A stretch of DNA of 64,000 nt, from sequence record ON568341.1; one strand, written 5' to 3'. A program made the translations under genes and the position numbers. Source of the DNA: Escherichia phage UE-S1. The notes beneath the pieces were generated by a model. The model saw nothing but the letters and a program-made list of their open reading frames with translations, searched no databases and had not been told where the DNA came from. Positions 40,282 through 63,688 of the stretch are shown in pieces; the stretch's first letter is position 1, and each line of letters starts with the position of its first letter.

Positions 40282-42183
40282 TTACGCACTGATTGTTACA
40301 GTTGCAGTATCTGTTTTATTACCATCAGCAGTAGCCACTGTAATGACTACAGAACCTTCTTCTAGAGCAGTTACTAATCCCTCATCACTAATAGATACTT
40401 TAGTAGGTTCATCTGCACTATAAGTTACTGATTTGTTAGTTGCGTTAGATGGAAGAACTTCTGGAACTAGTTGAACTGTTTTAGTACCTGATAGTGAAAG
40501 TTCAGTAGTTTTAGGTGTTAAACTAACACTGGATACAGGAACTGGAATATTAACAGTAATAACACCTTGACCTGTTTTACCACTTCCATCAGCAGCAGTT
40601 GCGATAATGTTTGCAGTACCATTAGTTAGTGCAGTTACAATACCAGTACTAGCATCAACTTTTGCTACAGCAGGTTCACTAGAAGACCATGTTACAGATT
40701 TATTAGTTGCGTTAGATGGAAGAACTTCAGCAGCCATTGCTTGAGTTGCTTTAACAGCAGTCAATGTTTTAGTTGCTGGAGTAACATTAATAGATGCTAC
40801 AGGAACTGGAATATTAACAGTTACCACGCAAACTTTAGTAAATCCACCATCAGATGTGGTTGCTGTAATATTTGCAGTACCGTTTGCAACAGCAGTGATT
40901 AACCCAGTTGGACTTACCGTTGCGACACCCTCAGCAGAAGTAGTGTATGAAATATCTTTACGACGAGCGTTATCTGGAATAACAGATGCAGTTAATTGTT
41001 GAGTAGCACCTACCGAAGTTAGGGTTGCGGTCAACGGAGTCATATTAATACCAGTTACTGGGATCGTTACATCAATCACTGATTCAGCAGTTTTAGCACC
41101 ATCATCAGTGGTAACAGTAATAGTTGTAGTACCGTTATCAACCGAAGTTACTAGACCAGTATTACTAACTTTTGCTACGTCTGGATATGAAGAAACATAT
41201 GAAACTGCTTTATTGGATGCAGTTGCAGGAGCAACGGTTGTTTCTAATTGTTTAGTATCACCTAATGTTGAGAATGTATAAGTACTAGGAGTCATAGTGA
41301 CACCAGATACCGGTGTTTTCACAGTGATAGTAGTAGTATCAGTTTTAGCACCATCTTCGGTTGTTGCTGTAATCACCACTGTACCGTTAGCAACACCAGT
41401 TACTAGACCAGAAGTAGGGTTAACGGTTGCTACATCAGGTGTTGCTGAAGACCATGTAACGTTTTTATTAGTTGCATCATCAGGAGATACTGTAGCCGTT
41501 AATTGTTGAGTACCGCCAACGTTAATTGTTGCAGTTTTAGGAGAAACAATAACACCACTAACTGGAGTTGTTACGGTAAATGCACAAACATCGGTGAAAC
41601 CACCATCATGAGTAGTAACTGTTACATTTGCATTACCATTAGCACGGGCAATTGCTAAACCAGTTTCAGCATCAACTTCAACTATTGTTGGAGCAGAGGA
41701 ACTATAACTTACTGTTTTATCATTTGCATAATCTGGATCAATTGTAGCTGATAGCTGTTGTGTACTACCAACTTTAAGTGCTACAACTTTAGGTGAAATA
41801 ATAACACCATCAACTGGAGTAGTATAATCACGTTTAACCACACGACCATTGTTCAATTTAATAATACGACCCATATAAAGAGTAGTATATCCCTTACTAA
41901 TCCCATCATCTACATAAATCATGAATGAATTGTCTTGAACCATATTAATTGCGTCTACTGGTTTAACGGAATTTGGAATGTCGATACCACGGGTATCATA
42001 CCAACACATGGAAACTTTGTAATAGATATCACCATTATCATTTATGAGATCATAAACGTTACTGGAACGTTGACGGTTAATATATAAAGTTTCGGTTAAC
42101 ACCTTACCATCGATTTTAGCGACAGAAACTTTAATACCACCAATACCAAATGGCAATTTACCTTCACTAGATATTGCTTTCAT
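40282..42183 (-). CDS. Ig-like (Big_2) repeat protein, putative virion decoration or adhesin
   Basis: 633 aa on minus strand; about 120 aa N-terminal domain followed by about six tandem repeats (VSPKTATINVGGTQQLTATVSPDDATNK..W.S....VATV); TATAAATA motif upstream. Confidence 0.65.
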   Translation of the reverse strand: MKAISSEGKLPFGIGGIKVSVAKIDGKVLTETLYINRQRSSNVYDLINDNGDIYYKVSMCWYDTRGIDIPNSVKPVDAINMVQDNSFMIYVDDGISKGYTTLYMGRIIKLNNGRVVKRDYTTPVDGVIISPKVVALKVGSTQQLSATIDPDYANDKTVSYSSSAPTIVEVDAETGLAIARANGNANVTVTTHDGGFTDVCAFTVTTPVSGVIVSPKTATINVGGTQQLTATVSPDDATNKNVTWSSATPDVATVNPTSGLVTGVANGTVVITATTEDGAKTDTTTITVKTPVSGVTMTPSTYTFSTLGDTKQLETTVAPATASNKAVSYVSSYPDVAKVSNTGLVTSVDNGTTTITVTTDDGAKTAESVIDVTIPVTGINMTPLTATLTSVGATQQLTASVIPDNARRKDISYTTSAEGVATVSPTGLITAVANGTANITATTSDGGFTKVCVVTVNIPVPVASINVTPATKTLTAVKATQAMAAEVLPSNATNKSVTWSSSEPAVAKVDASTGIVTALTNGTANIIATAADGSGKTGQGVITVNIPVPVSSVSLTPKTTELSLSGTKTVQLVPEVLPSNATNKSVTYSADEPTKVSISDEGLVTALEEGSVVITVATADGNKTDTATVTISA

Positions 42184-57518: not shown

Positions 57519-57523
57519 TACAA

Positions 57524-57546
57524 AAGCACCCGTCGGGTGCTTTTTT
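57524..57546 (+). terminator. rho-independent terminator
   Basis: GCACCC-GTC-GGGTGC hairpin followed by TTTTTT. Confidence 0.65.
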
Positions 57547-57554
57547 GTTATGTA

Positions 57555-57562
57555 TATAAATA
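57555..57562 (+). promoter_or_regulatory. T4-type late promoter motif TATAAATA
   Basis: Exact TATAAATA about 30 nt upstream of the 57594 start. Confidence 0.5.
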
Positions 57563-57593: not shown

Positions 57594-60293
57594 ATGATGT
57601 CAAAGAAAATATATGGTGGATTAGATGTCACACATAATGTGACAGTTAATGGAAAAAGAACAATACAAGGTATTAACAAACAAGTGTTTGACGAAAATGG
57701 TAATATGGTGTTGGATACATATTCAAAAAATGAAATGAATGATATCATTGGTATGTTACCAATTTCACATTATGGTTCCATGAACTATCTACCTGCTGGG
57801 GTCGGTGGGGATTTCAATGGTGCATCAGAAAATCAGGCATATCGCAGGAATAAGGTATTATTGGAAAATGATGGAACACTCGTTCTTTTGCGTAGTGGTA
57901 CAAACGGTAGTGTTGAAGGTTTATATTATTCTTATTTGTCTAATGCATTAGCAGTTACTGATATGAGTCGTACAATTAACACAAGTCGTCAATACAAACC
58001 AGGATTCTTCGGTCCAAATCGTGTTGCACTTGGTTTATTTAACACTGATCAAAATATTATAATGGGGAGATATAAAGATATTTCAAACAACACAATTGGT
58101 ACATTCATTTCTATTACTAATGGTACACTTAATGATACATTACACACAGGTTTTTTTGTAAATCAAACTGATATATCACCTGAAGGTGGTGTTGAATATG
58201 CTATGATGGCAGAAGACGGTTCAATATATGTTTTTAATGTAATTAATGAAAATAATAAATTTGAAATAGCCATTGTTAAAGTTGTATTTAATGTGGATAA
58301 TGGTTCTTACACAGCAACCCGCATCACAGGGTGGACTACAAAAACATTTTATAATACTACTTATTCTGGGCAAAATAATATTGTGATAACTAATGCAATG
58401 ACGTCAACTAATATTGCGGATAAGCCTTATGTATTTGTTCCTCCGAATTTGTATGGTATGGGGATTTATATGACATCTATTGATTTATATGTTGCACAAC
58501 AACCAGGAACACAAAATTTTCGTTTCAGGATGAATGGTGACGCTTATTTCGCCATGCCAACATATAGTTCGCGTCCACAACACAATTATAGTTTCACGTT
58601 CGATATGAACTCAAAGCAATGTACATTAGATGCAGGTAACGATATTGGCTCCTTCCAAGCACCGTTGGTTATAACAAATACAGGTTCTGACTTAGTTGCA
58701 TCTGGTAATGTGTTGAATTTAGACCCACTATATGACCACAATGGATATAGAAACATTTATAGTTCATATTTTTATTTAAATTCTGGTGACGTGTTTTGTA
58801 CTGCATGTCCAAACTTAGCAGAGCCACTCGCTATGCAAAAAGCAAAGTTTCCTGTGCAAATAGTATATAACATGTTAAATGTTCGTGCTGTTATATCATC
58901 AAACTTCATAGGTGGTATCGTCCGACCATCATTTGGTTCAGCGGTTGGTTCATATATTAATGGCGTTGAACTACTTCCAGATAACAGTACTAAACAATAT
59001 TCACGAGCATCTGGTTCAGGTGGTTTTAGTCCGTCATATGCAGTTCATAAAAGTACTCCGAATTTTACATTTCAATCGTTATCATTGGGAACAATTCAAG
59101 GTTATGAACCCACCACTGAGCGTAAAAATGTAAGTGAAAATAACAACAATAGAATTTTCATTAGTACTGTGTCTGGGTCAACAGTTACAACTAATGGTGG
59201 TATTTTTATGGTCGGACAACGTTATTCACAATCACTGTCTTTTGATAAAAACTTAAATGGTACAGGTAGTATTAGTGTTTCGCAATCAGTTCTTGATGGG
59301 TTCAGAGACTCTGAATATGCTAAAGTTTTAAGTGATTGGAATTTATCTCCGCAAGCGGGTAAAGATATGACATTGTTTGTACCGCAACAAGCGGATATTC
59401 CAGCATTTGTCATGCTCAGTACAATAACTAATGATTTTAAAAACTACATTAGAATTGCTGAAGTTAATGTAAACACCAGAGTAGGTGAAATCAAATCGAT
59501 AACATTCAAGCGTTTAGTTCTTGAAAATAGATATGGTGATAGTTTCACACCGAATGTTGGCGGTTATATTGCACCATCATCTGTTGGTTTAACAATTTAT
59601 GATGGTGGTTCTTTTTATTTCATTGGCGGTTCAGATCCATTAACACATCCAACAATTGGTAATACAGCAACACACATATTTCGTGCATACGTAAACAAAT
59701 CATCTGCACAATTTGAGAGTTTTATTATTGATGGTATCCATGCGTACTATAATCAAGGCCGTCAATTCACTGCATTACCTGATATTGGATTTGGATATTT
59801 TGATACAATAGACTATGATAACAAAATGATTTTCCGCAAATGTGGAACTACTATTGAAGAATATAATAACTGGAAAGAACAAGGTAATCCAATCAACGTT
59901 GTTTCACAAGATGTTGCACAAGGATTTGTTGTTTATTTTACAGAAGAAACTCCAGTTATTCTTTCTGGTAAATCATTTACCTTACCAGTGTCAAATATTG
60001 ATTTAAGAACAATAAAGCCAAACCCAGCCAATACAACATTTCATGTATATGTTAAGTTAAAACAAGGATTAGTAACTTATCATATAACTACCGATGTTAT
60101 TTCAGAAACTGGGACAATTGCATATAATATATTGTGGATAGGAACAATTAGAACTAACGATATTCAAATTGTATCAATTGATATACAAAAACGTTCACGA
60201 TTGGATATTTTTGGTGCTTCACTTGAAGCGGCAGGGGTTTCGTTCCCAGTCAGCTACGGTCTACCATCACAAACAGGAACCATAAACTGGTAA
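57594..60293 (+). CDS. tail fibre-like protein A (paralog of 60911..63643)
   Basis: 899 aa; late-promoter motif upstream; Ser/Thr/Asn/Gly-rich; N-terminal, internal (VSQDVAQGF.VYFT) and C-terminal modules shared with the two downstream ORFs. Confidence 0.55.
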   Translation: MMSKKIYGGLDVTHNVTVNGKRTIQGINKQVFDENGNMVLDTYSKNEMNDIIGMLPISHYGSMNYLPAGVGGDFNGASENQAYRRNKVLLENDGTLVLLRSGTNGSVEGLYYSYLSNALAVTDMSRTINTSRQYKPGFFGPNRVALGLFNTDQNIIMGRYKDISNNTIGTFISITNGTLNDTLHTGFFVNQTDISPEGGVEYAMMAEDGSIYVFNVINENNKFEIAIVKVVFNVDNGSYTATRITGWTTKTFYNTTYSGQNNIVITNAMTSTNIADKPYVFVPPNLYGMGIYMTSIDLYVAQQPGTQNFRFRMNGDAYFAMPTYSSRPQHNYSFTFDMNSKQCTLDAGNDIGSFQAPLVITNTGSDLVASGNVLNLDPLYDHNGYRNIYSSYFYLNSGDVFCTACPNLAEPLAMQKAKFPVQIVYNMLNVRAVISSNFIGGIVRPSFGSAVGSYINGVELLPDNSTKQYSRASGSGGFSPSYAVHKSTPNFTFQSLSLGTIQGYEPTTERKNVSENNNNRIFISTVSGSTVTTNGGIFMVGQRYSQSLSFDKNLNGTGSISVSQSVLDGFRDSEYAKVLSDWNLSPQAGKDMTLFVPQQADIPAFVMLSTITNDFKNYIRIAEVNVNTRVGEIKSITFKRLVLENRYGDSFTPNVGGYIAPSSVGLTIYDGGSFYFIGGSDPLTHPTIGNTATHIFRAYVNKSSAQFESFIIDGIHAYYNQGRQFTALPDIGFGYFDTIDYDNKMIFRKCGTTIEEYNNWKEQGNPINVVSQDVAQGFVVYFTEETPVILSGKSFTLPVSNIDLRTIKPNPANTTFHVYVKLKQGLVTYHITTDVISETGTIAYNILWIGTIRTNDIQIVSIDIQKRSRLDIFGASLEAAGVSFPVSYGLPSQTGTINW

Positions 60294-60304
60294 AGGATTA
60301 TACA

Positions 60305-60892
60305 ATGGCATATAAAATAAGAGCAGATCTTAAAGCAATGGAACAGGTTACAGTACAAGGTAAAAGAACTGGACTTGGTGTGTTAGGTAATAATATGACG
60401 TATTATCCAACAAATTCAGATGGGGAATGTACTTTCCCATCTATTACAAAAGATGATATTGATTTTATTGTAAATGGTTTTCCCATTACACAATATGGTG
60501 AATTATATGATAATGAAAATCTAAATATTACATCATCTGGTAACAAACTTACATTTAATAGAGAGATACCATCATTTATTGGTGGTTATCTATACAAGTT
60601 TCCGGCAGTTTCTGTTTTTGCATCACCAGTTACATCGGGAACACAGACTCAATATGTATATGCAACATTGGTTCTAGGTGAACCAATTTATAAAGTATCT
60701 CCGATACAAATGCAAGAATCTGAAATTATAATGTTTATTGGTACTATTATTGTTGGAACAAGTGGTATTACAAATATAAACATCGATAAGGTGTCAAGAT
60801 TTAGTACGTTTAGACCTAACGTTACACAAAAAGGTTCGTCATTCCCAGTTAGTTCTGGAAAACCATCCGAAACCGGTTCGATTAGTTGGTAA
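60305..60892 (+). CDS. short tail fibre-like protein B (shares C-terminal module)
   Basis: 195 aa; C-terminus KVSRFSTFRPNVTQKGSSFPVSSGKPSETGSISW parallels the C-termini of both flanking large ORFs. Confidence 0.5.
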   Translation: MAYKIRADLKAMEQVTVQGKRTGLGVLGNNMTYYPTNSDGECTFPSITKDDIDFIVNGFPITQYGELYDNENLNITSSGNKLTFNREIPSFIGGYLYKFPAVSVFASPVTSGTQTQYVYATLVLGEPIYKVSPIQMQESEIIMFIGTIIVGTSGITNINIDKVSRFSTFRPNVTQKGSSFPVSSGKPSETGSISW

Positions 60893-60910
60893 ATTAAGGA
60901 AAAGAAAAAA

Positions 60911-63643
60911 ATGTCATCAAAACGAATTATAGGAAGTGCTGAGATCCTTGGAAACTTAGCGATTGGTGGAAAATATGCAATGCGTACATTTAACGGAACT
61001 TCCCCCGATGCAAACACTGGAATAGTTAATTATCCAATATATAATAGGTCGGAAGTACAACGTATTTTAGACATGCTACCAATATCACGTATAGGAGAAA
61101 TGGATTATCTTCCATTAAACGTGAATGGCTCATATGAAGGGGCAACATCAAATTCAGATATATATCGCGTTCAACCGACTATCATTGAAGATGATGGAAC
61201 TGGTGTGGTATTACGTGCAGGTACTAATGGTAGTGAAAAAGGTTTCTATTATTCTTTCATACGAGATTTAAGAAATGTTTCTTCTTTAACTCAAGATATG
61301 GTCATTTCAACCACAAGTAAATATAAACCATCCATTCTCAGTGCTGGGGAAAGTGTTACTAGATTTATTGGTTCTAATGGGTATGAGCTTTTAGTTTCAT
61401 ATACATCGAACTTAAATTATATTTTTACGTTAACAAATGGTACATTCAATGAAACATCCCATATCCATGCTAAATTGGTTGGTACACAATTTAATACGGA
61501 TAAACCATTATATGCACATATAGTTGGGGCAAATATATTCATTTGGTGTAAAGATACAACAGTAACTAATGGTGGCATGGCATATACATTATACACCGTA
61601 TCAAAAAGTGATGTGATTAATGGCACGATGACATCTTTTGCTAAAGTTACAGGATTTTCTGGACAAACAGTTAGAAATACAAGCTATAGTTCATCAAACA
61701 ACATTCGTGTATTTGATAGTTATTTTTCCACAAATTCTGACTCGGACTCTCTATTTGTTATTAACAGTCCCGTGAATAGTGTAGAGTATATTGATTATAA
61801 TGACTATAATATCCAAGCGAATGCCAGTTCTGATAACTCTAGAATACGAGTTACTTTATATATAACACCACGTTTCAGTACACCATTGATTGTATCTCCT
61901 GTATTCGCAACAGGTATAAGTTTTGTTTATACTATTAGCTCAAAATCTATGTCATTGGACGGTAGTGCCAGAGCACCAGTTACAGTATCGTATACTAATA
62001 ATAAGTTTGTGGTTTCTAACCAGTTTGAAATTTCAATGAGTAATTTTACTGGTTCAAAGAACAGTTTATCTTCATTAGGTGATTGTGGCTCAATATGTCA
62101 AACAACAGATGGTCTAGTTTTCACTTCAAAATCCAGATGGGTTTCTGATGAGACATATGGCTTACAACTATATAAAGTTCAAGGTACACCATACGATAGT
62201 TGGGTTGCTAGTTCCCGTAAAGCAAGTGATTTAATAAACGTAAATGTTAAACCAACATACGGTTCGGCTGTAGGTGAAAACTTACTTGGTGTTAGATTCA
62301 TTGATACCAGAAAGATACTTCTTGCATGTTCAAGTACTAGCAATGGTGTAACTTATGGTTATGATAGTACTGTGTATTCTCAAATTGGGGAAAATCCAAC
62401 ACATACATATAATAGTGTTACTACTGGAAAATCTATAGAAGGGTTTGCACCTGAATCAGAACGTAAATATCTAGGTAATAGTTATGATTACAGTGCTATG
62501 ATTTCGTTAATCGCAGAAGACGGTACAGTAAGGTCTTATGGTTCATCATTTATTGAAGGAATTACCAAAGATGCAACTGGGTTACTAGATCCAGTTACAA
62601 TGACATTCTCTGGAAAATATACAATATCTGATGCTACTTTAATGGAGTTAAAACAATCTATCATTACTAGCTCTAAAATTTCTGGTACTAGTACTTCTAG
62701 AATATGCTTTTATTATGTACCTGACACTACATTCTCAAGATCTATGGCAGTCGTTTGTACATACAGCCCAACTAATAACCAAGGGTATGCTATTTTTGCT
62801 GAAGTTGATGTTGTACTTAGTGGTTCTGAAATCACAAGTGCATCAGTATATTCAACTAGATACGAAGTTGAAGATAATGTTTCTGGTATACAAAGCAATG
62901 CAATATTAAAGCGTTGCACGGGAATGACAGTTGCGAAATACACAGGGTTCAATTATCTTGGAATTGATACAATTCACCAGTTCACTGTACCTGGCGATGT
63001 TCATCAAAAAATGATGATAGCTAAAGTTAAAAATGGAGATATTAGTAGTAATCGTTATTTCACAACTTATCATGTTAATGCTAATAATAGCTTTGCTTTC
63101 CAACATGGTGCAATTCCCAATGTTGGGTTTGGGTATTATAACTTCAACATTTCAGATTTACAGACAAAAGCAGTTTTTTCTGTATTTGGTACAACTGAAG
63201 CACAAATGGATGGTTTGATTGCGGGGACTGGAGCAGTGCTGAATAATTATGTCATTGTGTCACAGGACGTTGCACAGGGTTTTAACGTATACTTCACTCG
63301 TGATGTACCAGTGTTTTTGGGTGGAATGTTTGACAGACTACCAGTTCAAAGTATAGATTTGAAAACTATTAAAACTAATCCTGCTAACAGTACTTTTTAT
63401 ATTTACATTCAAATGGATCGCAACACTGGAAAAGCGGCATACGTTATTAGTACTACCCTTCTCGATGAGACATTGACAAATGTTTATATTGGTAATATCA
63501 TCACTGGAAGTACAAGTATCACGTCGATTGATACTGAAAAGGTAACTCGCTTCTTGACCTACCGACCTAGTACCACAAAACGTGGGTCCGCAATACCTGC
63601 CAGTACTGGTGTACCATCTGGGCCTGGCTCCCGTTGGAAATAA
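60911..63643 (+). CDS. tail fibre-like protein C (paralog of 57594..60293)
   Basis: 910 aa; N-terminal MLPIS..G.M.YLP and internal VSQDVAQGFNVYFT..P..L......P.QSIDLKTIK.NPAN.TF segments shared with protein A. Confidence 0.55.
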   Translation: MSSKRIIGSAEILGNLAIGGKYAMRTFNGTSPDANTGIVNYPIYNRSEVQRILDMLPISRIGEMDYLPLNVNGSYEGATSNSDIYRVQPTIIEDDGTGVVLRAGTNGSEKGFYYSFIRDLRNVSSLTQDMVISTTSKYKPSILSAGESVTRFIGSNGYELLVSYTSNLNYIFTLTNGTFNETSHIHAKLVGTQFNTDKPLYAHIVGANIFIWCKDTTVTNGGMAYTLYTVSKSDVINGTMTSFAKVTGFSGQTVRNTSYSSSNNIRVFDSYFSTNSDSDSLFVINSPVNSVEYIDYNDYNIQANASSDNSRIRVTLYITPRFSTPLIVSPVFATGISFVYTISSKSMSLDGSARAPVTVSYTNNKFVVSNQFEISMSNFTGSKNSLSSLGDCGSICQTTDGLVFTSKSRWVSDETYGLQLYKVQGTPYDSWVASSRKASDLINVNVKPTYGSAVGENLLGVRFIDTRKILLACSSTSNGVTYGYDSTVYSQIGENPTHTYNSVTTGKSIEGFAPESERKYLGNSYDYSAMISLIAEDGTVRSYGSSFIEGITKDATGLLDPVTMTFSGKYTISDATLMELKQSIITSSKISGTSTSRICFYYVPDTTFSRSMAVVCTYSPTNNQGYAIFAEVDVVLSGSEITSASVYSTRYEVEDNVSGIQSNAILKRCTGMTVAKYTGFNYLGIDTIHQFTVPGDVHQKMMIAKVKNGDISSNRYFTTYHVNANNSFAFQHGAIPNVGFGYYNFNISDLQTKAVFSVFGTTEAQMDGLIAGTGAVLNNYVIVSQDVAQGFNVYFTRDVPVFLGGMFDRLPVQSIDLKTIKTNPANSTFYIYIQMDRNTGKAAYVISTTLLDETLTNVYIGNIITGSTSITSIDTEKVTRFLTYRPSTTKRGSAIPASTGVPSGPGSRWK

Positions 63644-63659
63644 TTTTAAAGCTCGTCTA

Positions 63660-63688
63660 TTGACGGGCTTTTCTTTTGTGTGTATAAT
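63660..63688 (+). promoter_or_regulatory. sigma70-like promoter candidate overlapping terminator hairpin
   Basis: TTGACG, 17-nt spacer, TATAAT; preceded by GCTCGTC..GACGGGC hairpin with T-run; 24 nt upstream of the AGGAGG-led ATG at 63712. Confidence 0.5.

Follow-up and report, generated by a model that had tools for sequence, protein, structure and literature searches.

Paralogs with shared end modules and a probable role in host adhesion from three consecutive late genes of jumbo coliphage UE-S1

The receptor-binding proteins of the lactococcal phages p2 and 1358 and the protein TssK share a "shoulder," the fold of a trimeric domain that fixes the protein to the baseplate. In these proteins the shoulder is N-terminal and leads through a neck to a C-terminal head, and all of the solved members are homotrimers (PMC7291167). 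A shoulder-like protein can also stand alone, as does gp22 of SPP1 (PDB 2XC8). In phiKZ, the consecutive paralogous late genes for gp131, gp133, gp134, and gp135 encode fibre proteins that share an anchoring region, N-terminal and of ~250 aa in the gp131 type, whereas their distal parts differ. According to the cryo-EM atlas of this phage, its fibres dock under gp130 and the fibre base has been modelled as a hetero-oligomer of paralogs (PMC13250141). The distal domain of gp131 is a beta-propeller, and there is a crystal structure of its C-terminal domain (Sycheva 2012). Propellers are also borne by tailspikes, such as the endosialidases of K1F and phi92.

Little has been mapped of the apparatus by which the Rak2-like jumbo coliphages recognize their hosts, and no function is known for most of their genes. 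Here, we examine a locus of one such myovirus, Escherichia phage UE-S1, within a window of 64 kb (the whole stretch of DNA that was analysed). The locus comprises three genes, called here A, B, and C, all annotated as "hypothetical" (table 1). We found no statement on them in the literature on Sharanji, fEgEco12, UE-S1, and SHEFM2K.

Table 1. Features of the A-B-C locus and of one other late gene in the window
Feature	Position	Strand	Remarks
Gene with 6 Big_2 repeats	40282-42183		surface protein
Intrinsic terminator of upstream nrdD/nrdG unit	57522..57544	+	10-bp stem, 5 GC pairs, T-run
T4-type late promoter TATAAATA	57555..57562	+	32 nt 5' of A ATG
Gene A (UES1_449)	57594..60293	+	ORF, 899 aa
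A, N-module	57594-57794		residues ~1-67
A, predicted all-beta propeller-type body			residues ~70-770
A, C-module	59916-60290		residues ~775-899
Gene B (UES1_450)	60305..60892	+	ORF, 195 aa, headless mini-paralog
B, N-module	60305-60514		residues 1-70
B, C-module	60533-60889		residues 77-195
Gene C	60911..63643	+	ORF, 910 aa, phrog_3573
C, N-module			residues ~1-75
C, divergent all-beta body			after N-module
C, C-module	63266-63640		residues ~786-910
Intrinsic terminator closing three-gene unit	63648..63671	+	10-bp stem, T-run
Sigma-70-like promoter for next genes	63660-63688		TTGACG-17-TATAAT; overlaps preceding terminator

A and C align from end to end with 28% identity (E=1e-72). Residues 77-195 of B match 788-909 of C (E=7e-20), its residues 84-195 match 782-899 of A (E=7e-13), and its N-module is recognized both by alignment (B 1-67 with A 2-63, E=3e-6) and by HMM. 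The similarity among the three proteins is thus far above chance, and the pairwise alignments bear out the paralogy that a sequence-only reading of this DNA had proposed for three consecutive ORFs, whose sizes, positions, and common strand were also correct. The boundaries drawn in that reading have to be moved, however. The C-terminal module is indeed common to all three, but it extends over ~120 aa rather than ~40 aa. What had been described as an internal block of the large proteins (VSQDVAQGF...NPAN.TF) is shared, but it is the start of the C-module and B has it too. The N-terminal block is present in A and C as claimed, but it is not limited to them, as B shares the N-terminal ~65 aa. Finally, the C-terminal consensus holds overall but was written slightly loosely (A has RL in place of RF, and C ends in ...GSRWK). 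Since B carries both modules without the centre of ~700 aa, it is a mini-paralog, a headless version of the same scaffold and not a third receptor-binding protein. The window holds no further module-bearing ORFs; a group of similar-sized ORFs (~160-230 aa) at 1.4-18 kb, considered as another possible paralog array, showed no similarity at E<1e-5.

The late promoter motif TATAAATA is depleted in the window, with 2 copies in 64 kb against an expectation of 13.6 +/- 3.5; the other copy lies 5' of the Big_2 gene. Its ATAAATA core recurs at the same position (about -39) 5' of A orthologs at seven loci from several genera. In CBB, structural genes are reported to be preceded by ATAAATA, and the phage is reported to have a sigma factor similar to gp55 (PMC5259590). 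The hairpin that ends the nrdD/nrdG unit is likewise kept 5' of the orthologous genes of phAPEC6, CBB, a Yersinia phage, and two metagenomic relatives. With a strong terminator hairpin on either side and a TATAAATA late promoter, A-B-C form one unit, and this context indicates that they are transcribed late and in isolation from their neighbors.

Presence in the virion had been set beforehand as the check on which the sequence-only reading could fail, and it did not fail, since orthologs of A and C were found in purified virions by mass spectrometry. These are gp323c of phAPEC6 (the A ortholog), JP4_233 (A) and JP4_235 (C), which are of similar abundance in JP4 virions, and CBB_148 together with CBB_149, the latter being the C ortholog (37% identity). 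CBB_147, the A ortholog, was not detected in CBB virions. B itself has been seen in no virion proteome and is missing from the 49 proteins of JP4, where only ~0.4 peptides would be expected from it at the depth reached for A and C.

Could such virion proteins be decorations? phAPEC6 and CBB bear "hairy" appendages or whiskers on the tail sheath and capsid, no gene has been assigned to these in either phage, and both encode the family. Nonetheless, a decoration role is very improbable. The whiskers are long thin filaments of ~119 nm, whereas the model is compact and globular (~100 kDa); GAP32 has the family, yet no whiskers have been reported there; and both the fold of the module and the domain fusions described below indicate the baseplate or fibres. 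Moreover, the late gene with six Big_2 repeats is a better candidate for a surface filament. On shape and distribution among phages we rejected a whisker or hair identity.

Members of the family occur in at least 166 phage records, and those from metagenomes form 418 clusters at 50% identity. A and C match phrog_3573 over their full length (4e-253 and 1.2e-230, respectively) and B matches phrog_26864 (2.4e-102), both groups of uncharacterised jumbo-phage proteins. True orthologs occupy the same position after nrdD/nrdG in Mimasvirus, in CBB (CBB_147/148/149, entered as paralogs in the CBB paper, PMC5259590) and GAP32 (GAP32_143-145). All three are full length in CBB, whereas in UE-S1 and other Asteriusvirus phages the body of the middle protein has been lost. 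Exactly three module-bearing genes were found at 8 of the 10 loci from distinct phages, and the number of full-length bodies among them is one, two, or three (for example, 3 in CBB, 2 in UE-S1, and 1 in XaC1). JNE01 and phAPEC6 resemble UE-S1 in their sizes (899/195/910 aa), as do two metagenomic relatives (901/196-197/918-925 aa; three loci, two of them near-identical), and other triplets measure 902/916/916, 928/895/946, 199/194/911, 420/1163/1156, and 241/978/971 aa. In Goslar two module genes only were found, its gp27 not being detectable as a member; EL ORF116, the third candidate in that phage, gave a borderline match (hhalign E=8e-4, probability 25%), and neither EL ORF113 nor RAY gp17 is detectable as a module gene. 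Mini forms abound: of the 148 best cluster representatives, 61 measure 150-249 aa and 57 measure 900-999 aa. Across genera, the modules fall into three recognizable lineages, one for each of the types A, B, and C.

In comparison with phAPEC6, the neighboring genes are 94-97% identical, but A is only 82.5%, B 85.6%, and C 66.3% identical. The body of C resembles that of JNE01 (81.5% overall), while the first 30 residues of the protein, the last 40, and every neighboring gene are phAPEC6-like. These comparisons indicate that A, B, and C evolve faster than their neighbors and that one body was swapped between lineages, a diversification typical of receptor-binding proteins. B has a dN/dS of 0.12, the same purifying selection as A. 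The earlier picture of duplicated proteins with conserved ends and variable centres is therefore upheld by the alignments, the virion orthologs, and the late-promoter context; that of three duplicated receptor-binding proteins gains from the anchor-like module, the fast divergence, and the body swap, but it does not extend to the headless B.

The C-module is predicted to have the RBP/TssK shoulder fold, a beta-sandwich with an associated helix, which favors the earlier suggestion of a common attachment module. The alternative suggestion that it is chaperone-like fares badly; the fold is shoulder-like, and neither Pfam nor NCBIfam yielded a match to any of the three proteins at E<=1, hence none to a tail-fibre chaperone or S74 model. 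Fold and blank chaperone-family matches together led us to reject a chaperone identity for B or the C-module. The likeness to p2, 1358, and TssK has its bounds: there is no sequence similarity, and in place of an N-terminal shoulder with a head behind it, the UE-S1 module is C-terminal, or split by an insertion of ~700 aa, follows the body in A and C, and has no head after it. SPP1 gp22 offers an analogy without a mechanism for A/B/C, and unlike B it has no known paralogous large partners. Both monomer predictions drop to a pLDDT <50 in the N-terminal segment and over the last ~30 residues, as would fit inter-chain elements, and the B model is of low confidence overall (63.8), with an unreliable N-terminal part. 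That a very conserved tail of ~30 aa is left unplaced by AlphaFold in the monomer suggests an inter-chain element.

The body of A is modelled as a compact, globular, all-beta structure of propeller type, whose closest folds are lectins, sialidases, and glycoside hydrolases. The triple beta-helix, coiled-coil, and right-handed beta-helix of fibres and tailspikes are absent from the predicted A structure, so the tail-fibre-like or beta-helical fold expected from the sequence is not borne out. No internal duplication of the body emerged when its halves were compared by hhalign (probability 0.3%). The propeller matches are generic, at 4-12% identity, and a profile search of PDB sequences with A gave no match; with Pfam and NCBIfam also blank, it is the fold class that suggests glycan binding. 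On this basis the body is likely a glycan-binding "head" and possibly a glycan-cleaving one. The predicted fold is that of sialidase and glycoside-hydrolase propellers, and the bodies could be imagined as enzymes of the virion (sialidase, GH43, GH32, or GH130 type) that act as glycosidases or depolymerases and degrade surface polysaccharide instead of only binding it. We consider this quite unlikely, as the two best structural matches are fucose lectins without enzyme activity, the identity to any structural match is so low, no BNR/Asp-box or catalytic glycoside-hydrolase signature was found in A/B/C by Pfam at E<=1, and the alignment shows no identifiable conserved catalytic constellation. 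Nor do A/B/C resemble the phage endosialidases, for they lack sialidase motifs, the S74 C-terminal chaperone domain, and a beta-helical stalk.

The relation to tail fibres that the sequence-only reading had proposed finds its support in other jumbo phages. RAY gp18/19 and EL ORF114/115 carry an N-terminal fibre anchor of the phiKZ gp131/133/134/135 type followed by an A-like body and the C-module, and the gp131-like N-domain (~250 aa) is present throughout RAY gp17-19 and EL ORF113-115 (E 1e-13 to 1e-20). In RAY, EL, and Goslar a homolog of phiKZ gp130 is encoded beside the module genes, and in Xoo-sp14 and Goslar these genes adjoin tail-fibre genes. A/B/C share with the phiKZ proteins the arrangement of adjacent paralogous late genes with a common attachment region and distinct distal domains, but in UE-S1 the part held in common is a short N-segment and a C-terminal shoulder-like domain. 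BLAST, HMM, and jackhmmer searches revealed no gp131-type N-domain in the UE-S1, JNE01, and CBB proteins, nothing significant was found for a gp132-type fibre repeat in A/B/C, and a search for the C-module in phiKZ gp131-135, gp145, and gp146 was negative. Because the RAY and EL homologs have a different N-terminal anchor and the module is C-terminal, it may not be the baseplate anchor.

As the shared end modules resemble the baseplate-anchoring domain of receptor-binding proteins, A/B/C most likely constitute one host-adhesion device, a late virion-protein set at the periphery of the tail or baseplate and possibly a heterotrimer; we give this reading a probability of roughly 0.6, with the tail location and the binding of glycans as inferred parts of it. 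In such a device, the ~700-aa propeller bodies of A and C would be the glycan-binding, or possibly glycan-cleaving, heads, each set between a short N-terminal segment and the ~120-aa shoulder-like C-module. A, B, and C would each contribute one chain, joined through the shared modules, and B, a scaffold without a body, would complete the trimer. It is from the almost constant retention of exactly three module genes, with a body number that ranges from 1 to 3, that we infer a heterotrimer, and the end at which it is anchored is likewise put forward as a proposal. In its strictest form, the adhesin would be an obligate heterotrimer held together by the shoulder-like modules, its heads tuned to three (CBB), two (UE-S1), or one (XaC1) by deletion of bodies, with the headless chains preserved for the sole purpose of completing the trimer. 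We regard this version as possible and offer it tentatively.

Rather unlikely, in our view, is that there is no joint assembly, A and C being homotrimeric adhesins at separate sites and B a small adaptor, a plug for a third docking site, or an assembly factor that is not part of the virion and acts as a folding template for the shared module. The uniformly homotrimeric state of the solved shoulder-domain proteins (PMC7291167), the lack of B among the JP4 virion proteins, its location directly 3' of a large adhesin gene, where tail-fibre assembly genes usually lie, and the precedent of SPP1 gp22 all speak for separate assembly. But it leaves unexplained why one member of each of the three module lineages is kept while bodies have been lost from different members. 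Furthermore, B has neither the family match nor the fold of a tail-fibre chaperone, it retains both modules under purifying selection as A does, and heteromeric fibres made from paralogs of adjacent genes have a precedent in phiKZ (PMC13250141).

A single host-adhesion device thus remains our preferred reading, and with it a previously uncharacterised but widespread family of jumbo-phage proteins gains a probable role, together with a map of its domains. Through the domain fusions, the Rak2-like phages are connected with the fibre system of the phiKZ type, and the genes can serve as concrete adhesin candidates when the host range of therapeutic Asteriusvirus phages is to be engineered. If the heterotrimer is real, headless subunits would give large phages a simple route to vary the valency of their adhesins, and such a mode of variation, in specificity as well as valency, would be one that has not been described for phage fibres.

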